64,000 nt of DNA, from positions 26,184 to 90,183 of the forward strand of contig CAKOLN010000003.1 in assembly GCA_934096075.1 (NCBI GenBank), in the 5' to 3' direction. This DNA comes from an uncultured Bacilli bacterium (GTDB lineage: Bacteria > Bacillota_I > Bacilli_A > RF39 > UBA660). How positions within the stretch are numbered: the first letter of the stretch is position 1; each line of letters starts with the position of its first letter. Shown here piece by piece: positions 1 to 61,932 of this stretch. Position numbers and translations under genes: made by a program. Under the pieces are notes generated by a model that saw nothing but the letters and a program-made list of their open reading frames with translations, was not told where the DNA came from and did no database searches.

Positions 1-11
1 GTGAAAATTAA

Positions 12-338
12 ATGAATGGTAGTTACTACAAAAGCCCATTATTTCCAAACGAACCAATCTATGAAAGAGATACTGCAGTACCTAACCAAAATAATGACTT
101 ACCAATGGAACAAAGTTACATAGAAAATATACTAAGACTTAATAAAGGAAGAAAAGCAACAATATATGTAAGTTTTCCTGATTCCATAAATTGGAAAGAT
201 AAAATATTTACTGGAATAATTGAACAAGCAGGAAGAGATCATATCATATTAAGTGATCCTGAAACTGGAAAATGGTATATGATATTAATGATATACTTAG
301 ATTATGTTGAGTTCCAAGATAAAATAAACTACAAATAA
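12..338 (+). CDS. gerQ: Spore coat protein GerQ-like (C-terminal Spore_GerQ domain)
   Basis: 108 aa; the C-terminal motif ENILRLNKGRKATIYVSFPDS...WKDKIFTGIIEQAGRDHIILSDPETGKWYMILMIYLDYVEF matches the conserved GerQ/YwdL core from memory. An in-frame TAA lies immediately upstream, so the ORF starts at 12. A hairpin plus T-run terminator sits at about 340-366. Confidence 0.6.
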   Translation: MNGSYYKSPLFPNEPIYERDTAVPNQNNDLPMEQSYIENILRLNKGRKATIYVSFPDSINWKDKIFTGIIEQAGRDHIILSDPETGKWYMILMIYLDYVEFQDKINYK

Positions 339-480
339 GGTATCTTAAATGATACTTTTTATTTTGAAGAACTAAAAATCGCACTCTTGTGAATTAATTC
401 GTGAGTTAGATTTTTCCTTTTTTGTTTCTAAAAGTATTTATTTTTATGCTTACATATGGTATGATTGTTATGGTGGTAAT

Positions 481-876
481 ATGATTATTTCCAAAGGAAG
501 AGGATATGTATATGGTATAGAGTACCATATAGTATTTTGTACTAAATATCGTAAAAAAATAATAACCGATAGTGTAAAAGATTCACTTTTTCAAATAATT
601 ATATCATTATCTCAAGAAATGGATTTTAAAATAATAGAAATTAATACAGATTTAGACCATATTCACTTGTTAATTAGTTGTAAGCCTCAGCATTATATAC
701 CTACTATCGTAAAAAGATTAAAAGGTACAAGTGCAAGACTATTATTTAAATTATATCCAGAATTAAAAAAAGAATTATATGGTGGACATATGTGGAATCC
801 TTCTTATTTTGTTGCTACTGTTAGTGATACACTAGAAGATAATATTAAAGAATATATTTCTAATCAGGGGAAGTAG
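481..876 (+). CDS. tnpA: IS200/IS605 Y1 (HUH) transposase TnpA
   Basis: 131 aa; the HIVFCTKYRKK motif, the HUH-type HIHLLIS motif and a C-terminal catalytic Y region (WNPSYFVATVS) are typical of IS200-like TnpA. Confidence 0.85.
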   Translation: MIISKGRGYVYGIEYHIVFCTKYRKKIITDSVKDSLFQIIISLSQEMDFKIIEINTDLDHIHLLISCKPQHYIPTIVKRLKGTSARLLFKLYPELKKELYGGHMWNPSYFVATVSDTLEDNIKEYISNQGK

Positions 877-1968
877 GTGTTATTTATGGAGTATACTTAT
901 AGTTTTAGAATTTATCCTAATGAAGAGCAAATTGTTTTAATTGCTAAAACTTTTGGATGTTGTAGATTTATCTATAATTATTTTTTAGACTATTCTAATA
1001 ATAATGGCTATAGTTCAAAGTATACAAATAATAATACCTGTAATAGAGAGCTAAAAGTAGAATATCCTTGGCTTAAAGAAGTGGATAAGTTTGCTATTAC
1101 TAATACTATTTATAATTTAGATAATGCTTATAAAAGATATATAAACAAATTAGGTGGTAATCCTAGATTTAAAAAGAAAAATAAGGGAGAATCTTATCAA
1201 ACTAATTATACTAATAATAATATAGAAGTATTAGATAATTACATTAAATTACCTAAATTAGGTAAAGTACTCGCTAAAGTTCATAGAAAAGTAGAAGGTA
1301 CTATTATTAATGCTACAATAAAAAAATATAGTAATAATAAATATAAAGTAATGATATTAGTTAGAAAAGAAATTAAAAAGTTAGAAACTAATAGTTATAT
1401 AGTAGGAATAGATATGGGAGTTAGTAATTTTGTTCATGATAGTTCTAATAATATATATAATGCTCCTAAAGAATTAATGAATACTTATGATAAAATAGGT
1501 AGATTACAAAAAAGTCTTTCTTTAAAAAAGAAAGGCAGTAATAATTATAAGAAAATAGAAAATAAGATTAATAAACTATATGATAAATGTAATAATGTTA
1601 GAAATGATTTCTTACATAAATTAAGTACTAGTATTATAAACGAAAACCAAGTTATAGTAGTAGAAGATTTAAATGTTAAAGAAATGTTTCAAAATAAGAA
1701 TATAGCCAAAGTACTTGGAGATATATCTATATCTAAGTTTATTAATATGTTAGAATATAAAGCAAAATGGTATGGAAGAAAATTAATAAAGGTTGGTAGA
1801 TATTATCCATCTAGTCAGTTATGTAATAACTGTGGTTATCAAAATAAAAAAATAAAAGACTATAGTATAAGATCTTGGCAGTGTCCTAGATGCGATAGTG
1901 TACATGATAGAGATTATAATGCTGCGAACAATATACTAGATAAAGGAATAGAATTATTACTTATCTAA
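877..1968 (+). CDS. tnpB: IS605 OrfB / TnpB RNA-guided endonuclease (RuvC-like plus Zn finger)
   Basis: 363 aa; RuvC-I (VGIDMGV), RuvC-II (VVEDLNVKEM) and a C-terminal zinc finger (CNNCGY...CPRCDSVHDRDYNAANNI). It is full length with no frameshift. Confidence 0.85.
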   Translation: MLFMEYTYSFRIYPNEEQIVLIAKTFGCCRFIYNYFLDYSNNNGYSSKYTNNNTCNRELKVEYPWLKEVDKFAITNTIYNLDNAYKRYINKLGGNPRFKKKNKGESYQTNYTNNNIEVLDNYIKLPKLGKVLAKVHRKVEGTIINATIKKYSNNKYKVMILVRKEIKKLETNSYIVGIDMGVSNFVHDSSNNIYNAPKELMNTYDKIGRLQKSLSLKKKGSNNYKKIENKINKLYDKCNNVRNDFLHKLSTSIINENQVIVVEDLNVKEMFQNKNIAKVLGDISISKFINMLEYKAKWYGRKLIKVGRYYPSSQLCNNCGYQNKKIKDYSIRSWQCPRCDSVHDRDYNAANNILDKGIELLLI

Positions 1969-2130
1969 TTAATTATATATAGGGTAGGAACTATCCGAGT
2001 TTATGTCTCTTTACATTAATAATAGTATTATTAAATGGAGAAAATTCTAATAGTGATATTAGAAGCATGCGATATTAAATCGTGTGAGGTTCACAATAAA
2101 TGTAAACTAACAATATTTGTTAATTCAATG
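1850..2130 (+). ncRNA. Putative omegaRNA/reRNA of TnpB, derived from the tnpB 3' end plus the IS right end
   Basis: Inferred from established TnpB biology, in which the guide RNA scaffold overlaps the tnpB 3' end and the right end. A structured right-end region with hairpins is present. Not directly demonstrable from sequence alone. Confidence 0.3.
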
Positions 2131-2157
2131 AATTCAATTATGTGATACAATACTATT

Positions 2158-3384
2158 ATGAAGAAGTTTTTTAAAAGTTTAATAATATTTATTTTAATGT
2201 GCCCTTTAATAACAAAAGCATTTGAAATTGAAGGATTATATTCTAAAAATGTCTTAGTCTACAATTTAGATGAAGATAAGATTTTATATAATGTAAAAAG
2301 TGAAGATAAAATTAGCATAGCAAGTCTTACAAAAATAATGACTACAATAGTCGCTATAGAAAATATTGAAAATTTAGATGAAACCATAACTATAACTTCT
2401 AAAATGTTAGATGACATTCCATATGATGCATCAACCGCAGGATTAGAAGTTGGAGATAAGGTAACTTATAAAGATTTGTTATATGCAAGTCTTATACCTT
2501 CTGGAGCTGATGCAACTCAATCATTGGCAGTTTCGATCTCAGGTTCAGTATCTAAATTTGTAGAACTTATGAATAATAAAGCAAAAAGCTTAAATATGAA
2601 AAACACTCACTTCGTTAATACTACAGGACTAGATGCAGAAGGACATTATTCAACACTAGAAGACATACTTATTTTAATAAAATATGCCTTAAAAAATGAA
2701 ACATTTAAATCAGTATTTGAAACAAAATCATACACAACTACAAACAATATTAAACTTAAATCAACATTAGATTATTATAATAGAGATTTTAATTACAACA
2801 TATCTTATGTATTAGGATCAAAAACAGGTTTTACTGATGATGCAGGCCTATGCCTATTAACTTTATCAAATGTAGATGACACAAATATCATTACAATAAC
2901 AGCTAATGCACCCTATTCTTATGGTAACTCTAAAAACATGATGGACCTAAACACAATAAAAACATCATTAGATAAATCATTTGAAAAAGCAACACTCATA
3001 ACTGAAAACGAGCAACTAATAGTATTAAATACGAAATATGCTAAAGAAAAAGAAATAAAAATAACATCTCCTTCCGAAATAACTAAATATGTAGAAAAAC
3101 CTTTCAATAAAGATAAAATAAAAACTGAATATACTGGAGAAAAAATAATATCATACAAAACAGAAAAAGGTACTAAACTTGGAGAAATAAAAATAAGTTA
3201 TAATGATGAATTAGTAGATATAATTGAAGTTAAATTAGATAAAGATTTACACTTTAGTTTATGGGTATTTATTAAAGATAATATATTGCTAATCACTATA
3301 GTAATCATAGTATTTCTAATGCTTCTATTAATAATTAGAAAATCTAAAAAGAAAAGAAAGAGACTAAGAAAAATGAGACGATAA
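2158..3384 (+). CDS. D-alanyl-D-alanine carboxypeptidase (PBP5/DacB-type serine peptidase S11) with C-terminal TM anchor and K/R tail
   Basis: Signal peptide; SxxK motif (SLTKIM), SxN-like region and KTG motif (KTGFTDDAG); C-terminal hydrophobic segment followed by KKKRKRLRKMRR. Confidence 0.8.
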   Translation: MKKFFKSLIIFILMCPLITKAFEIEGLYSKNVLVYNLDEDKILYNVKSEDKISIASLTKIMTTIVAIENIENLDETITITSKMLDDIPYDASTAGLEVGDKVTYKDLLYASLIPSGADATQSLAVSISGSVSKFVELMNNKAKSLNMKNTHFVNTTGLDAEGHYSTLEDILILIKYALKNETFKSVFETKSYTTTNNIKLKSTLDYYNRDFNYNISYVLGSKTGFTDDAGLCLLTLSNVDDTNIITITANAPYSYGNSKNMMDLNTIKTSLDKSFEKATLITENEQLIVLNTKYAKEKEIKITSPSEITKYVEKPFNKDKIKTEYTGEKIISYKTEKGTKLGEIKISYNDELVDIIEVKLDKDLHFSLWVFIKDNILLITIVIIVFLMLLLIIRKSKKKRKRLRKMRR

Positions 3385-3398
3385 GTCTCTTTTATTAT
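3352..3398 (+). repeat. Direct repeat copy 1 (47 nt): stop codon plus rho-independent terminator hairpin of dacB
   Basis: aaaagaaagagactaagaaaaatgagacgataagtctcttttattat; 46/47 identical to 4397-4443. Contains a hairpin (gagact...agtctc) followed by a T-run. Confidence 0.8.
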
Positions 3399-3461
3399 AC
3401 TAAAACATATGATATAATTAATTTGAGACAAACTTAAAAGAGAAAAAATATAAAGAAAGGA

Positions 3462-4412
3462 GTGAAAGAAATGATTGATTTTTCTACTTCAATTGAAGAA
3501 TTAAATAGTTATAAGGGATCAGAAAAAAAGAAAACCTTAATTTACAATGGAAAAAAATATTTAGTAAAATTTCCAGATCCAATAAGAGAAAAAAATAAAA
3601 CAATTTCATATATAAATAATGCTTTTTCAGAATATGTAGGAAGCAATATCTTTAAATTACTAGGATTTGAAACTCAAAATACATTACTAGGTATTTATAA
3701 GTACAATAATAAAGACAAAGTAGTATGTGCTTGTGAAGACTTTACTGACAGTAACCACGAATTGTATGAATTTGAAAATCTTGCACTAAGTACTAATCCC
3801 GATAAAAAAATTCAAACTGAATTAAATGACATAATGGAAGTTATTAATTGGTTGACTAATTCAAAAGATATTAAATTGTATATAAATGATAATATAAAAG
3901 AAAAGTTTTGGAATATGTTTATCATAGACTGCTTAATTGGAAATACCGACAGACATAATGGCAACTGGGGATTATTGGTAAACACTAAAACTAAGGAAGC
4001 AAGTTTTTCACCAATATATGACTGTAGTTCTTGTTTAAATCCAATGTTAGATGATGAGGAATTATCTAAAATAGATGAAATAGAGTTAAAAAATTTAGCA
4101 ATTAATTCATATTCATGTCTTAAAGAAAATGGAAAAAAGATAAATTACATCACTTTCATAAAAAATGCAAAAAACGAAGACTGCAATAAAGCTTTATTAA
4201 GAGTATTTAAAAAAATTAACATAGAAGAAATTAATGACTTTATAGATAGTATAAAAGGAATATCAAAAACAAGAAAAAACTTTTATAAAAACATAATTAA
4301 TTATAGATATAATATATTAAATAAAATACATAAGAAAATAGTTAATTCAAGATATAAAGTAATTAGGGAATCTTATGATAAAATAAACATTGATAGAAAA
4401 GAAAGAGACTAA
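3462..4412 (+). CDS. HipA-like Ser/Thr kinase domain protein (HipA_C / CtkA / HipT-like, short form)
   Basis: 316 aa; the catalytic-loop motif CLIGNTDRHNGNWGLL matches the HipA_C GNxDxHxxN signature. No adjacent HipB/HipS-like small ORF. Own promoter (TGaTATAAT at about 3408-3420) and RBS AAAGGAG. Confidence 0.6.
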   Translation: MKEMIDFSTSIEELNSYKGSEKKKTLIYNGKKYLVKFPDPIREKNKTISYINNAFSEYVGSNIFKLLGFETQNTLLGIYKYNNKDKVVCACEDFTDSNHELYEFENLALSTNPDKKIQTELNDIMEVINWLTNSKDIKLYINDNIKEKFWNMFIIDCLIGNTDRHNGNWGLLVNTKTKEASFSPIYDCSSCLNPMLDDEELSKIDEIELKNLAINSYSCLKENGKKINYITFIKNAKNEDCNKALLRVFKKINIEEINDFIDSIKGISKTRKNFYKNIINYRYNILNKIHKKIVNSRYKVIRESYDKINIDRKERD

Positions 4413-4443
4413 GAAAAATGAGACGTTAAGTCTCTTTTATTAT
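4397..4443 (+). repeat. Direct repeat copy 2 (47 nt): terminator duplicated after the HipA-like gene
   Basis: aaaagaaagagactaagaaaaatgagacgttaagtctcttttattat. It is read in a different frame from copy 1, and here supplies the last codons and stop of the HipA-like ORF. Confidence 0.8.
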
Positions 4444-4546
4444 GTCTAATTCTATCAAATTTCAAAAAAATTCTAGTAATTTCCCCTATTTATGTGCTAT
4501 TATATATATACTAGCGGAGTATTGACTTAAAATTGTACCAAATCTT

Positions 4547-4575
4547 TCACAATTTGCAAATGCATAAAATTGTGA
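4547..4575. promoter_or_regulatory. Promoter of the rplI-dnaB operon with a 9-bp perfect inverted repeat (candidate operator)
   Basis: TTGCAA-17 bp-TGTGATATAAT (extended -10). The inverted repeat tcacaattt...(11)...aaattgtga spans the -35 and -10 elements. Confidence 0.5.
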
Positions 4576-4599
4576 TATAATATACTGACGGAGGATTTT

Positions 4600-5040
4600 A
4601 TGAAGATAATATTACTAGAAAATGTAAAAGGAACTGGAAAAAAAGATGAAATAAAAGAAGTTAAAGATGGCTTTGGAAATTTCCTTATAAAATCAAAAAA
4701 AGCAGTTTCTTATTCAGAAAAAAGTAAAGAGGTTCTAAAAACTCAATTAGAAAACAAAAAAGAAGAAGAAGACAGAATATATAAAGAAGCCTTAGAATTA
4801 AAAAGTAAGTTAGAAAAAACAAAACTAACTTTTAAAGTAAAAACTGGGGCTCAAGATAGAGTTTTTGGTAGTATAAGTTCTAAACAAATAAGTGAAGAAT
4901 TAAAAAAGAAAAACCTTAATGTAGACAAAAAAATAATAGATGCAGAAAACATAAATTCTCTAGGAATGCATTTAGTTAAAATAAAATTACATAAAAAAGT
5001 AACTGCCGAATTAAATGTAGAATTAAAAGGTGGTGAATAA
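4600..5040 (+). CDS. rplI: 50S ribosomal protein L9
   Basis: 146 aa; the N-terminal MKIILLENVKGTGKKDEIKEVKDGFGNFLI is typical of L9; RBS GGAGG. Confidence 0.9.
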   Translation: MKIILLENVKGTGKKDEIKEVKDGFGNFLIKSKKAVSYSEKSKEVLKTQLENKKEEEDRIYKEALELKSKLEKTKLTFKVKTGAQDRVFGSISSKQISEELKKKNLNVDKKIIDAENINSLGMHLVKIKLHKKVTAELNVELKGGE

Positions 5041-50967: not shown

Positions 50968-52541
<1,574 letters not shown>

Positions 52542-52822
52542 ATGGAGTAATAACTAGTAGAAAAAAGAACCGTAAATATCATTCGGGGTTTGCTTAATTG
52601 AAACATGATATATTATAAACTAACATAAAACACATTTTACTCGGCTTTGAGAGATTATTTCTCTCAATATTGTATTTAATTATACGATAATTGTTCTTTG
52701 AAAACTTGATAATGTGATGTTCATATTGTTCTTACGAGCAACAATATGAATGCTTAATTTTTTGGTAATTTATTTAAAGATAAATATTAAGAAATAGCTC
52801 ATCAAATTAGGATATATAAAGT

Positions 52823-55740
<2,918 letters not shown>

Positions 55741-55805
55741 CATTTAATTTGATGTTTTTAATCACATTATCTTGTTTTGAGAGAACAATTATGGTATAAT
55801 CATTT

Positions 55806-55912
55806 TATTGGTGACGATAGCAAAGTGGATACACCTGTTCCCATCTCGAACACAGAAGTTAAGCACTTTAACGGCGAAGATAGTGTAAGCGAAAATAGCA
55901 AGTTGCCAATAT
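55806..55912 (+). rRNA. rrf: 5S ribosomal RNA
   Basis: GTTCCCATCTCGAACACAGAAGTTAAGC core; terminal helix UAUUGG/CCAAUA. The ends are approximate. Confidence 0.85.
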
Positions 55913-55930
55913 TTTTTTTGCAATAAAATA

Positions 55931-55960
55931 CTTGAAATGTTTTAACAAATATTGTATAAT
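55931..55960 (+). promoter_or_regulatory. Promoter for tRNA-His (TTGAAA-17-TATAAT)
   Basis: cttgaaatgttttaacaaatattgtataatc, immediately upstream of the tRNA. Confidence 0.6.
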
Positions 55961-55971
55961 CATATCTACAT

Positions 55972-56048
55972 GGCGGTATTGGTGAAGTGGTTAACACACC
56001 AGATTGTGGCTCTGGCATGCAAGGGTTCGACTCCCTTATACCGCCCCA
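55972..56048 (+). tRNA. tRNA-His (GUG) with encoded G-1 and CCA
   Basis: Acceptor stem GGCGGUA/UACCGCC with an extra 5' G pairing the C73 discriminator; anticodon loop UUGUGGC; T-loop GGTTCGACTCC; 3' CCA encoded. A terminator hairpin follows at 56055-56085. Confidence 0.9.
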
Positions 56049-59621: not shown

Positions 59622-61932
59622 AGAACTAGTAATAATAGATAAATATTTTAGATTAGCAAATTATCTTTCAGTTGGACAACTATACTTATTAGATAATCCA
59701 TTGCTAAGAAGAAAACTTGAACTTAAAGATATAAAACCACATGTTGTTGGACACTGGGGAACCGCTCCTGGACAAAACTTCATATACTTGCATTTAAATA
59801 GAATGATAAAAAAATATAACTTGAATATGATCTACATATCTGGACCAGGTCATGGTGGAGAAGCCATGATTGCGAACACTTTTATAGAAGGTTCTTATAC
59901 AAAAATATATAATAATATAACAAATGATGAAGAAGGATTAAAAAAATTGTTTAAACAATTCTCTTTTCCAGGTGGTGTATCTTCACATGTTGCACCTGAG
60001 ACACCAGGAAGTATTAACGAAGGCGGAGAACTTGGTTATAGTTTAAGTCATGCTTATGGAGCAGTATTAGATAATCCAACATTAATCGCCGCCTGTGTAA
60101 TAGGAGATGGAGAAGCCGAAACAGGTCCACTTCAAGCAAGTTGGCAACTTAACAAAATAATAAATCCAAAAAAAGATGGAATAGTTTTGCCTATCTTACA
60201 TTTAAATGGTTATAAAATTGCAAACCCAACAATATTATCTAGAATACCTGAAGATGAATTAATTTCATACTTCAAAGGACTAGGTTACAAACCATATATA
60301 GTTGAAGGTAATGATGAAAAGAAAATGCACATAAAAATGGCTTCTACTATGGAAGAAGTAATAACTTATATAAATAAAATAAAAAAAGCATCACAAAATA
60401 CAGACTTCAGACCATTCTATCCAATAATAATCTTAAGAACACCAAAAGGATGGACTGGACCAAAAGAAGTAGAGGGTTCATTTAAATCACATCAAATCCC
60501 TTTAATAGTAGATGCCGAACATCCAGATAATGTTAGTTTATTAGAAAAATGGATGAAAAAATATAAACCAGAAGAATTATTTAATGAAGATGGAAGTATA
60601 AAAGAAGAAATAACAAACTATGCTCCACCACTAGATAAATGCATGGGACTAAATCCTAATACAAATGGTGGCTTATTACTAAAAGAATTAAAAACACCAA
60701 ATCTAAAAAAATATGGAGTAAAAATAAAAACACCAGGTTGCATAGAAAAAGAAGACATGAGAGAACTTGGTAAATACATTAGAGATTTAATAAAATTAAA
60801 TGAAAAAAATAATAACTTTAGAATATTTGGACCAGATGAAGCCTTATCAAATAGACTTAATTATGTATTTGATGTAACTAATAAAAAATGGGGTACTAAA
60901 ATAATTAAACAAGATGAATTATTAAACAGAAATGGTATGGTTATAGATGGAGTGCTATCTGAACATGCCTGTGAAGGAATGCTAGAAGGCTACTTATTAA
61001 CAGGAAGGCATGGTTTCTTTCATTCATATGAAGCATTTATAAGAATAGTTGATTCAATGACAAGCCAACATGCAAAATGGTTAAAAGTTACAAGTGAATT
61101 ACCATGGAGAAAACCAATAAGTTCATTAAACTACATACTTACAAGTCATGTATGGCAACAAGATCATAATGGTTATACACATCAAAATCCCGGATTTATC
61201 AACCACATATTAACAAAAAAAGCTGAAATATCAAGAATATACTTACCATTTGACTCAAACTCACTAATATCAACATTTGACCATGTAATAAAAACAAAAA
61301 ATTACATAAATGTTATCATCGCATCAAAACATATGAGACCACAATGGTTAAACATGGAAGATGCAATTCAACATTGTGAAAAAGGTTTAGACATTTGGGA
61401 GTGGGCAAGTACAAATAGTGGTAAAAATCCGGATATAGTCCTAGCATGCGCAGGAGACACACCAACTTTAGAAACATTGGCCGCAACAACAATACTAAAA
61501 GAACACTTGCCTAGCCTTAAAATAAGAGTCGTAAATGTTGTAGACCTAATGAAACTTGAATCAAATAAAAAACATCCACACGGATTAACAGATTCTGAGT
61601 ATAACAAAATATTTACCACAAACAAACCAATCATATTCACATTCCATGGTTATCCAAATGTAATACATGAATTAACTTATAATCGCACAAACAGAGAAAT
61701 TCATGTAAGAGGTTACAATGAAGAAGGTACAATAACAACACCATTCGACATGAGAGTTCAAAATAAAATAGATAGATACCACATAGTATTAGATGTCTTA
61801 AAATATGTACCAGGTTTATCTAAAGAAAAAGAACTTAAAAATTACTGTAATAAAATGTTAGAAAAACATAACTCATACATTAGAGAATATGGAAAAGATA
61901 TTGAAGAGGTATCAAATTGGAAATGGAAATAA
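59602..61932 (+). CDS. xfp: Xylulose-5-phosphate/fructose-6-phosphate phosphoketolase
   Basis: ANYLSVGQLYLLDNPLL, GHWGTAPGQNFIYLHLNR, ISGPGHGG motifs; ~776 aa from the ATG at 59602 after AAAAGGAG. Confidence 0.92.
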   Translation: MNKISNKELVIIDKYFRLANYLSVGQLYLLDNPLLRRKLELKDIKPHVVGHWGTAPGQNFIYLHLNRMIKKYNLNMIYISGPGHGGEAMIANTFIEGSYTKIYNNITNDEEGLKKLFKQFSFPGGVSSHVAPETPGSINEGGELGYSLSHAYGAVLDNPTLIAACVIGDGEAETGPLQASWQLNKIINPKKDGIVLPILHLNGYKIANPTILSRIPEDELISYFKGLGYKPYIVEGNDEKKMHIKMASTMEEVITYINKIKKASQNTDFRPFYPIIILRTPKGWTGPKEVEGSFKSHQIPLIVDAEHPDNVSLLEKWMKKYKPEELFNEDGSIKEEITNYAPPLDKCMGLNPNTNGGLLLKELKTPNLKKYGVKIKTPGCIEKEDMRELGKYIRDLIKLNEKNNNFRIFGPDEALSNRLNYVFDVTNKKWGTKIIKQDELLNRNGMVIDGVLSEHACEGMLEGYLLTGRHGFFHSYEAFIRIVDSMTSQHAKWLKVTSELPWRKPISSLNYILTSHVWQQDHNGYTHQNPGFINHILTKKAEISRIYLPFDSNSLISTFDHVIKTKNYINVIIASKHMRPQWLNMEDAIQHCEKGLDIWEWASTNSGKNPDIVLACAGDTPTLETLAATTILKEHLPSLKIRVVNVVDLMKLESNKKHPHGLTDSEYNKIFTTNKPIIFTFHGYPNVIHELTYNRTNREIHVRGYNEEGTITTPFDMRVQNKIDRYHIVLDVLKYVPGLSKEKELKNYCNKMLEKHNSYIREYGKDIEEVSNWKWK

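Follow-up and report, generated by a model that had tools for sequence, protein, structure and literature searches.

An IS200/IS605-type element lies between gerQ and dacB of an uncultured gut Bacilli bacterium (host DNA 29% G+C), and it raises the question of where the element begins and ends, which of its parts are intact, and whether it is likely to be a working RNA-guided system or a remnant of one. All positions refer to the window, i.e. the whole stretch of 64,000 nucleotides that was analysed. The earlier note on this DNA had recognised an intact element that encodes both a Y1 TnpA and a full-length TnpB and has a likely guide RNA at the right end, and that identification is borne out by the protein domains, the active sites, the covariation of the RNA and the match between the guide and the empty site. 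It can be stated with high confidence that positions 369-2094 hold a complete, probably active IS200/IS605 insertion sequence with ISDra2 as its closest characterised relative, which would be maintained by TnpB-omegaRNA homing. The transposition chemistry, the expression and processing of the omegaRNA, the TAM use of TnpB and its cleavage activity we infer from the family.

Boundaries, insertion site and polymorphism

The ends of the element were established by comparison of filled and empty alleles. In eight empty alleles the flanks fuse exactly between positions 368 and 2095 with no duplication (BLAST), the empty allele reading TTGAA followed directly by AATAAATG and the filled allele carrying the element between the two. 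The same ends, GAACTAAAAATC on the left and GAGGTTCAC on the right, recur in two further unrelated genomic contexts (L003 and L004) and are common to three independent contexts in all. No inverted repeat is formed by the termini (GAACTAAA and GGTTCAC); as in other IS200/IS605 elements, subterminal imperfect hairpins are found at both ends in place of terminal inverted repeats. The extent of 440-2150 proposed earlier was thus off by 71 nt on the left and by 56 nt on the right.

TTGAA stands directly 5' of the left end at all nine independent insertion sites of close copies and likewise in L107, and the left end abuts this specific pentanucleotide with the target not duplicated, which is again a family trait. 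A TTAC-like target had been suspected; the TTAC at 448-451 is internal to the element.

Table 1 Features of the element and its flanks, in window coordinates
Feature	Position	Strand	Description
gerQ	12-338		Upstream of the element
gerQ terminator-like hairpin, then T-tract	339..365	+	GTATC 340-344 / GATAC 351-355; flanking DNA, present in empty alleles
TTGAA target pentanucleotide and predicted TnpB TAM	364..368	+	Immediately 5' of the left end; kept in the empty allele
IS200/IS605-family element, whole	369..2094	+	1726 bp; no target-site duplication; no terminal inverted repeats; from empty-allele comparison
Left-end subterminal imperfect hairpin	386..405	+	CTYGTGAATT/AATTCGTGAG, with G.T mismatches; from fold and nine-copy comparison
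tnpA	481..876	+	131-aa Y1 HUH transposase; H60-I-H62, catalytic Tyr125; Pfam Y1_Tnp E=9e-41
tnpB	886..1968	+	Predicted 360-aa RNA-guided nuclease; RuvC D176, E260, D343; zinc finger C313, C316, C333, C336
omegaRNA scaffold	1982..2094	+	113 nt between tnpB stop and right end; no ORF overlap; RNAalifold and pair counts, 45 relatives
omegaRNA stem 1	1982-1986 / 1992-1996	+	5-nt loop
omegaRNA pseudoknot	1988-1991 with 2089-2092	+	-104..-107 paired with -3..-6
omegaRNA stem 2	2006-2010 / 2037-2041	+	
omegaRNA stem 3 hairpin	2016-2034	+	
omegaRNA clade-specific extra hairpin	2045-2064	+	20 nt, between stems 2 and 4
omegaRNA stem 4	2066-2073 / 2079-2086	+	
Right-end subterminal imperfect hairpin	2066..2086	+	CATGCGAT-attaa-ATCGTGTG; 8 nt from right terminus; same sequence as omegaRNA stem 4
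omegaRNA tail AGGUUCAC	2087-2094	+	Ends GGUUCAC
Predicted 16-nt guide AATAAATGTAAACTAA	2095..2110	+	Flank read through from the right end; position by the ISDra2 rule
Native dacB upstream region	2095..2157	+	Outside the element; near-identical in empty alleles, few SNP positions differ
Extended -10-like box TGaTACAAT	2143-2151	+	Native DNA, also in empty alleles
dacB, S11 D-Ala-D-Ala carboxypeptidase	2158-3384		Downstream of the element

Some strains of the bacterium carry the element at the gerQ-dacB site and others have the empty allele there; the element is multi-copy and polymorphic for presence and absence. In one metagenome the identical TnpB was found at three loci, which indicates recent spread. 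The window itself yielded no second copy (BLAST with the element, tBLASTn with both proteins), and plasmid and phage collections held no close copy, the best DNA identity being about 65%. No group I intron was detected at positions 1-5000 (Rfam, E<=1), and the left end lies just 112 nt before tnpA; an IStron was accordingly rejected.

All four filled alleles at the gerQ-dacB locus carry the linked flank SNP T345, where the empty alleles have A; because they share it, they represent one insertion by descent, and the empty state may be no more than the ancestral one, and not a product of excision. The element could on these grounds be regarded as a fixed relic with intact genes, in which a T at position 388 of the left-end hairpin blocks excision and the polymorphism records one old insertion. 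Seven of nine related copies have C at position 388; the T of the window copy converts a C-G pair to T.G, weakening one pair of a hairpin that is presumed, by analogy with ISDra2 and IS608, to be a TnpA binding site, and it could reduce excision. The identity by descent of the filled alleles and the fact that no excision product was observed agree with such a relic. However, T388 is also present in a copy in another MAG (L020), and since neighbouring hairpin positions vary among copies too, the stem appears to tolerate G.T pairs. The right end shows no difference from the right ends of other copies, and the occurrence of the same TnpB at three loci of one sample likewise argues against immobility, so that we consider a fixed relic unlikely and retain a mobile element as the preferred reading.

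The guide RNA

The region between the tnpB stop and the right end carries a conserved structure which we assign to the omegaRNA. The conserved scaffold lies wholly downstream of tnpB, and the span of 1850-2130 suggested earlier has to be narrowed to 1982-2094. Among 45 non-redundant relatives, 95.6% of the omegaRNA cells pair, against about 40% in slid-partner controls, and double-sided changes are seen in 16 of the 21 pairs. The covariation score is 0.651 versus 0.253 in shuffles and was reached by none of 500 shuffles. For the pseudoknot, 98.9% of cells are paired, with exchanges of AU to CG and of CG to AU. This covariation supports stems 1, 2 and 4 and the pseudoknot of the predicted RNA. 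As G.U cells (87) far outnumber A.C cells (5) in the alignment, the conserved structure belongs to the + strand.

A covariance model (R1) gave 55.6 bits at the window scaffold and matched right after the tnpB stop at five of five loci outside the seed (E 4e-11 to 3e-15; TnpB 56-77% identical), these five loci amounting to four distinct relatives, with L104 and L105 identical in the scaffold. Elsewhere in the window R1 produced weak matches only (<=14.5 bits), and the best of them was rejected as chance, as it sits within a 783-aa ORF. No Rfam family matched positions 1-5000 even at permissive thresholds (E<=1), for which reason the omegaRNA assignment is comparative throughout. Folding of 1900-2094 as a single sequence was not significant (z = -1.55), and the structure becomes apparent only with comparative data. 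A terminator scan labelled stem 1 as terminator-like, which was treated as a by-product of the hairpin.

The pairing of the GUUCA tail with the stem-1 loop, a UUUA-type loop at about -20..-17 and the presence of stems 1-4 agree with the architecture of the ISDra2 omegaRNA as seen by cryo-EM in complex with TnpB (PMC10097598), the positions and bases compared being those given in the text of that paper and not a sequence alignment.

The structure after tnpB might also be read as a top-strand DNA signal for the transposase only. The presumed TnpA site in DNA, i.e. the right-end hairpin assigned on the analogy of ISDra2, is the same sequence as stem 4; moreover, as the top strand and the transcript run in the same direction, the excess of G.U cells would look alike whether it stems from G.T in single-stranded DNA or from G.U in RNA. 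Against this, ISDra2 TnpA in vitro needs just the terminal 43 nt or so of the right end, which are sufficient (PMC2806898), whereas the covariation here spans 113 nt and reproduces the long-range pseudoknot and the architecture of the TnpB-bound RNA. The entire structure is also kept in relatives L104, L106 and L108, which have tnpB without tnpA. A pure DNA signal is on this evidence very improbable, and an RNA scaffold is preferred.

The transposase and the nuclease

Both tnpA and tnpB are intact, as the earlier note had held, with no frameshift or internal stop. TnpA possesses both the HUH motif and the catalytic tyrosine that mark the Y1 HUH transposases. It aligns without gaps with ISDra2 TnpA (2XM3; E=5e-37, offset +7) and matches IS608 TnpA (2A6M) at 2e-22. 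Its H60/H62 and Y125 fall on H67/H69 and Y132 of 2XM3, the HUH and tyrosine residues of ISDra2 TnpA.

TnpB is full length as previously read, though its start is likely ATG 886, giving 360 aa, and not GTG 877, giving 363 aa: an AGGTG Shine-Dalgarno sequence lies 6 nt upstream of ATG 886, and gene callers and homologues also give 360 aa. The protein carries the Pfam domains HTH_OrfB_IS605, OrfB_IS605 and Cas12f1-like_TNB, and it aligns with ISDra2 TnpB (8BF8/8EXA/8H1J) across residues 5-352 at E=1.5e-82. D191/E278/D361 and C331/C334/C351/C354 of ISDra2, whose roles are described in PMC10097598, align with D176/E260/D343 and C313/C316/C333/C336, respectively. The protein thus combines the RuvC triad with a TNB-domain CCCC zinc finger, as TnpB nucleases do, and both are invariant in 28 relatives (48-89% identity). 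A search of genome contigs with the single protein returned only nine loci, mostly near-identical; divergent relatives came from a metagenome scan with an alignment.

The conservation of these residues also bears on whether TnpB could be a nuclease-dead, domesticated RNA-guided regulator of the TldR kind, acting on neighbours such as dacB. The guide region does adjoin the dacB promoter region. Yet TnpB has kept all three RuvC carboxylates and its zinc finger, none of which varies among the relatives; the transposon ends are complete, an intact tnpA stands alongside, and the same protein occurs at unrelated loci. With catalytic residues, ends and tnpA all present, the features of TldR-type proteins are absent and such a regulator is scarcely credible; a TnpB that is probably catalytically competent is favoured.

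The TAM contacts of ISDra2 TnpB for T-5, T-4 and G-3 (N124, T123, F77 and K76) are kept as N110, T109, F69 and K68, and two contact residues are changed, namely S56 to N50 and Q80 to T72 (positions -1 and -2). Because these two residues differ, the TAM use of the window TnpB is a prediction from the insertion sites.

The gerQ and dacB flanks

The placement of the element between the gerQ terminator and dacB holds, with gerQ upstream and the S11 carboxypeptidase gene downstream. The insertion point lies 3 nt past the T-tract of the gerQ terminator and 63 nt before the dacB ATG, where about 8 nt had been claimed. The terminator-like hairpin has fewer than three G-C pairs and was not listed by a consensus terminator scan.

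Insertion left the native DNA upstream of dacB untouched. The earlier note had held dacB to be stripped of its own 5' region, whereas nearly the same 63 nt, including tgtgatacaat, are present in alleles without the element. It is hardly conceivable, therefore, that an element spanning roughly 440-2150 was inserted next to a TTAC-like site, abuts dacB and either supplies its promoter or forces a leaderless mRNA: a TTAC at 448-451, a -10-like box near the ATG and the lack of a visible Shine-Dalgarno sequence before position 2158 fit that anatomy, but it is rejected by the empty alleles, which lack exactly 369-2094 and keep 2095-2157 nearly unchanged with the -10-like box, by ends common to three independent contexts, and by TTGAA instead of TTAC at 9/9 sites.

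As dacB retains its own upstream region, its transcription need not be ascribed to a promoter in the element. A leaderless dacB mRNA is possible, given the extended -10 at 2143-2151, but such an mRNA would reflect the native locus and not the insertion. A promoter consensus scan was uninformative in this AT-rich DNA (31 sites versus 31.8 expected).

Predicted guide and homing model

The guide was placed in the right flank by the rule known for ISDra2 (PMC8612924). The same 16 nt, AATAAATGTAAACTAA, are unique within the window and stand directly 3' of TTGAA in the empty alleles, giving in silico an exact match to TAM plus guide. A right-flank guide, a TAM equal to the target motif and a donor joint equal to the target are what is expected of a TnpB-type system; in ISDra2, likewise, one pentanucleotide, TTGAT, is both the motif 3' of which the element inserts and the TAM (PMC2806898; PMC8612924). 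This match fits a role of TnpB as a putative homing nuclease.

It can be presumed from the family that TnpA would release the top (+) strand in the form of a single-stranded circle, recognising the hairpins at 386-405 and 2066-2086, with a predicted circle junction of GAGGTTCAC joined to GAACTAAAAATC, i.e. GTGTGAGGTTCAC joined to GAACTAAAAATCGCAC. The circle would be re-inserted 3' of another TTGAA with the target not duplicated. The + strand has a positive GC skew throughout the window and carries nearly all genes, which would place the top strand of this one element copy on the lagging-strand template; excision and insertion of ISDra2 have been described for this orientation (PMC8612924).

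TnpB would bind an omegaRNA made of the 113-nt scaffold (1982-2094) and a guide of about 16 nt transcribed from the adjoining flank (2095-2110). Excision would rejoin the donor site as TTGAA plus AATAAATGTAAACTAA, which is the TAM with a perfect guide match; on the T345 haplotype the predicted joint is TTATTTTGAA followed by AATAAATGTAAAC. TnpB may then cut the rejoined site, after which the element would be regained by recombination with the sister copy (homing or retention). The natural variation at this locus displays such a homing logic, the empty allele of other strains being exactly TAM plus guide.

To a more specific proposal we give slightly less than an even chance: that the short 360-aa TnpB without a C-terminal domain is an active nuclease with a TTGAA TAM, that its omegaRNA is a variant form, with stem 1 reduced to a minimum and an additional clade-specific hairpin, and that N50 and T72 explain the change from T to A at -1 relative to ISDra2. 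No mention of a TTGAA motif was found in the TnpB literature. If the proposal holds, the clade would provide a small editor scaffold whose TAM is different, and it would show TAM re-specification occurring naturally.

Relation to known systems and significance

The element is a new example of a well-known kind. ISDra2 of Deinococcus radiodurans is the best natural PDB match of both proteins and shares with it the gene order, a left-end pentanucleotide target starting with TTGA and not duplicated, subterminal hairpins at both ends, and an omegaRNA with stems 1-4, a pseudoknot through the 3' GUUCA tail and a right-flank guide. The two differ in the target, TTGAT there and TTGAA here, together with the -1/-2 contacts (S56 to N50, Q80 to T72). 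They differ also in the length of TnpB, 408 aa there and 360 aa here, the window protein ending near ISDra2 residue ~378 without the dispensable C-terminal domain. The window scaffold is further set apart by its freedom from ORF overlap, its 5-nt stem-1 loop and its extra 20-nt hairpin (2045-2064). The two DNAs are not alignable by BLAST-type searches, and the host in the present case is a gut member of the Bacilli with 29% G+C.

IS608 (ISHp608) of Helicobacter pylori is the mechanistic reference for IS200/IS605 transposition, and internal nucleotides that pair with its cleavage sites are known. It likewise has a Y1 HUH TnpA, the tnpA-tnpB layout and subterminal hairpins that are imperfect, and it inserts 3' of a short specific sequence with no duplication; its target, however, is TTAC and not TTGAA, and both window proteins are nearer ISDra2. 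The same architecture is found in plasmid elements of Clostridium, Enterococcus and Bacillus (e.g. C. tetani NZ_AP026813.1), which are about 65% identical in DNA at best, so the window element is a distinct insertion sequence. These plasmid relatives are annotated as 'IS200/IS605 family transposase' and 'RNA-guided endonuclease TnpB'. Miniature Cas12f/type V effectors share the RuvC and TNB core (Pfam Cas12f1-like_TNB) and a guide-RNA pseudoknot (PMC10097598); the window element, in contrast, has no CRISPR array, takes its guide from the transposon flank and encodes a TnpB that, going by the ISDra2 work, would act as a monomer.

For annotation, the exact ends, the target motif, the guide RNA and the predicted guide allow the element to be masked and named correctly. 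A compact ISDra2-like TnpB of 360 aa with a predicted TTGAA TAM and a delimited 113-nt scaffold clear of any ORF is of modest practical value. The element also accounts for breaks between contigs where this uncultured Bacilli lineage has been assembled from gut metagenomes.

Gene content and boundaries of the element

The tnpA and tnpB ORFs of the IS200/IS605-family element lie on the same strand between a gerQ homologue and an S11 carboxypeptidase gene, in a window of 28.8% G+C. The earlier note's description of both genes as intact was borne out: neither carries a frameshift, and the Pfam domains and key residues are in place. Its 363 aa for TnpB hold for the ORF read from 877, but the probable start is ATG 886 (360 aa), as an AGGTG lies 6 nt upstream, gene callers use the 360-aa form and homologues begin there. 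BLAST of the element and tBLASTn of both proteins returned no second copy in the 64-kb window.

Genes and predicted omegaRNA (TnpB guide RNA) features of the gerQ-dacB locus, in window coordinates
Feature	Position	Strand	Remarks
gerQ homologue	12-338	+	Spore_GerQ E=1e-37
tnpA ORF, Y1 transposase, 131 aa	481-876	+	Y1_Tnp E=9e-41
tnpB ORF	877-1968	+	domains HTH_OrfB_IS605, OrfB_IS605, Cas12f1-like_TNB
Stem 1	1982-1986 / 1992-1996	+	
Pseudoknot	1988-1991 / 2089-2092	+	
Stem 2	2006-2010 / 2037-2041	+	
Stem 3 hairpin	2016-2034	+	
Extra hairpin, this clade only	2045-2064	+	compensatory changes in loci L025, L056, L101
Stem 4	2066-2073 / 2079-2086	+	
Tail AGGUUCAC	2087-2094	+	
S11 D-alanyl-D-alanine carboxypeptidase (dacB)	2158-3384	+	

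Among metagenome contigs carrying GerQ protein, the gerQ-dacB interval contains the element in some (filled alleles) and lacks it in most (empty alleles). When the window was compared by BLAST with eight empty alleles, the flanks joined exactly at 368|2095, which defines the element as 369-2094 (1726 bp); there is no target duplication, the empty site reading ...TTATTTTGAA|AATAAATGTAAAC.... An identical TnpB is encoded by two further copies in unrelated contexts of a single Hadza gut sample, one neighbouring polA and the other a rhodanese gene, and both share the termini of the window element (start GAACTAAAAATCGC..., finish ...GTGTGAGGTTCAC). Judged by the empty alleles and these copies, the previously proposed interval of 440-2150 began 71 nt too late and ended 56 nt too late.

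At 9/9 independent insertion sites from at least six assemblies, TTGAA immediately precedes the left end, as it does in L107, a 64%-identical relative. The TTAC-like target suggested earlier is therefore not the left-end motif, the TTAC at 448-451 falling within the element. The characterised element nearest to it is ISDra2, whose insertions lie 3' of TTGAT, a pentanucleotide that also serves as the TAM (the motif beside the TnpB target) of its TnpB (PMC2806898; PMC8612924); the insertion motif here is TTGAA.

Within the left-end hairpin, position 388 is T in the window copy and C in most copies, converting a C-G pair to T.G; one other copy (L020) also has T, and adjacent hairpin positions vary too. 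In the flank, the SNP T345 is common to all four filled alleles while empty alleles have A, which indicates that the filled alleles stem from one ancestral insertion; the empty alleles are thus not necessarily excision products.

TnpB and TnpA proteins

Residues 5-352 of TnpB align with ISDra2 TnpB (8BF8/8EXA/8H1J; E=1.5e-82), whereby D176/E260/D343 correspond to catalytic D191/E278/D361 and C313/C316/C333/C336 to zinc ligands C331/C334/C351/C354, the roles of the ISDra2 catalytic, zinc and TAM-contact residues being taken from PMC10097598. Across 28 aligned TnpB relatives of 48-89% identity, none of the seven catalytic and zinc residues varies. The protein ends near ISDra2 residue ~378 and so is without the ISDra2 C-terminal domain, which has been tested by deletion (PMC10097598). 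Of the ISDra2 TAM contacts, K76, F77, T123 and N124 (G-3, T-4, T-5) are kept as K68, F69, T109 and N110, whereas S56 (-1) and Q80 (-2) are replaced by N50 and T72; this difference is only suggestive, since the alignment is insecure around residues 44-50. TnpA aligns gap-free with ISDra2 TnpA (2XM3, E=5e-37), with its HUH at H60/H62 and C-terminal tyrosine Y125.

Comparative evidence for an omegaRNA scaffold

No Rfam family matched the scaffold region at permissive thresholds (window 1-5000), and its single-sequence fold gave no significant structure. Relatives were gathered from 80 metagenomic loci (TnpB 40-89% identical) plus genome loci, and in nearly all of them the region 3' of the tnpB stop has one common architecture and finishes in GTTCAC, GTTCAA or GTGTCAA. 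RNAalifold on 45 non-redundant sequences recovered stems 1, 2 (long-range) and 4 (terminal); a pseudoknot pairing GAAC of the stem-1 loop with GUUC of the 3' tail was added afterwards and the pairs were then counted. Across the 45 sequences, paired cells amounted to 95.6%, against 39-43% with partners slid by 1-3 columns, and cells changed on both sides to 211, against 62 in shuffles; the covariation score of 0.651 (shuffles, 0.253) was reached by 0/500. Pseudoknot cells were 98.9% paired, with AU to CG in 10 sequences and CG to AU in 9, and the excess of G.U over A.C cells (87 vs 5) places the structure on the + strand. Comparative support for the predicted omegaRNA is strong.

The alignment served as seed for a covariance model, which was run on the window and on loci outside the seed. 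It gave a single strong window match (1968-2094, 55.6 bits) and matched immediately 3' of the stop codon in five non-seed loci (TnpB 56-77% identical; E 4e-11 to 3e-15), which represent four distinct relatives, L104 and L105 being identical there; tnpA is missing from three of the four. Two weak matches (14.5 and 10.9 bits) lie on opposite strands within a 783-aa ORF, at 60930-61209, and were judged chance.

The window scaffold matches the layout of the ISDra2 omegaRNA, compared through published positions and bases and not by alignment. The cryo-EM structure shows a 116-nt scaffold of stems 1-4 plus a pseudoknot of -5U to -3C with -103A to -105G, flanked by -6G and -2A, and a UUUA loop at -20 to -17 (PMC10097598). 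Tail bases -6 to -1 of the window are GUUCAC with the pseudoknot partner at -104 to -107, and the stem-4 loop at -21 to -17 is AUUAA (mostly UUUA in relatives). As the scaffold starts 14 nt past the tnpB stop, the earlier span of 1850-2130 was too wide on its 5' side.

Loci L104, L105, L106 and L108 combine the full omegaRNA motif and tnpB with no called tnpA, retain TTGAA upstream of tnpB, and are classed as IS1341-like solo-tnpB elements. An insertion of ~52 nt in the stem-3 region of a subgroup (L038, L043, L048), shorter in L057, means that apical stem 3 length varies freely. At L078 (2602-2750), the right-end terminal hairpin and tail occur twice, ~45 nt apart (…GCCATGAGAGGTTCAA … GCCATGAGAGGCTCAA), which may reflect partial duplication of the right end or what is left of a neighbouring copy.

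Predicted guide, homing model and strand

By the ISDra2 rule, the guide would consist of the ~16 nt that follow the right end, AATAAATGTAAACTAA (2095-2110). These bases directly follow TTGAA in the empty alleles, so that an excised donor joint or element-free allele would present a perfect TAM-plus-target, while the filled allele would be protected from TnpB because its TTGAA runs into the left end. Such homing and retention has been proposed for ISDra2 (PMC8612924) and is stated for IS605-family TnpBs (10.1101/2023.11.20.567912). Transposition chemistry, omegaRNA expression and cleavage we infer by analogy.

GC skew of the + strand is positive throughout the window and nearly all genes lie on it, which would make the top strand of the element the lagging-strand template; for ISDra2 the top strand serves as lagging-strand template (PMC8612924). 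A complete rRNA operon (16S, 23S, 5S), then tRNA, occupies 50969-56045. This operon, the nearby dnaB and rplI, the uniform skew and the gene bias place the window on one replichore, probably not far from the origin.

Distribution and significance

Hadza gut MAGs bearing the label 'uncultured Bacilli bacterium' contain near-identical TnpB fragments, while 'Firmicutes bacterium CAG:321' and a 1.46-Mb 'Bacilli bacterium' chromosome have copies of 93-96% identity. Among plasmid and phage records, DNA identity with the element does not exceed about 65-71%; those matching are annotated as IS200/IS605 transposase and RNA-guided endonuclease TnpB, and no paper of the searched literature joins TnpB, TAM and TTGAA. 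On these grounds, the element is a new insertion sequence that belongs to a very well-known type. Two points give it interest: natural variation in which TAM-plus-guide cleanly equals the empty allele, and a compact TnpB whose predicted TAM is TTGAA. The earlier note was confirmed in part as observation and supported in part as interpretation, its genes standing and its ends, target, RNA span and dacB gap being revised through empty alleles, other copies and covariation in relatives.

Near-identical TnpB clusters P0008-P0010 have hundreds of members on very short contigs, as expected if a multi-copy element fragments assemblies of this lineage; the Hadza contig L001 (ERZ4568042) begins at 2157, 1 base before the dacB ATG and 63 nt past the element, a break off the element boundary.

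The dacB upstream region

The right end had been placed ~8 nt from the dacB ATG, leaving the gene deprived of its own 5' region; empty alleles put the gap to ATG 2158 at 63 nt. The segment 2095-2157, including TGTGATACAAT, occurs in them with only a few SNP differences from filled alleles, so dacB lost nothing through the insertion. Translation probably begins at ATG 2158, as a typical signal peptide opens there (MKKFFKSLIIFILMCPLITKA); gene callers often choose the internal ATG 2197 (395 aa). As claimed earlier, no Shine-Dalgarno is visible 5' of ATG 2158. An extended -10 (TGaTACAAT, 2143-2151) ends 6 nt 5' of the ATG, in empty alleles too, and would set transcription start at ~2158; a leaderless dacB mRNA is hence conceivable, as a native feature not due to the insertion. 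Between the tnpB stop and dacB, the terminator scan gave only the omegaRNA stem-1 hairpin, treated as a by-product of that structure, and transcripts from the element may therefore read through into dacB.

Downstream of dacB, a HipA_C-like kinase ORF (3462-4412) is missing in loci L007, L011 and L012, where rplI directly follows dacB; besides the element itself, the locus thus shows a second case of presence/absence polymorphism.
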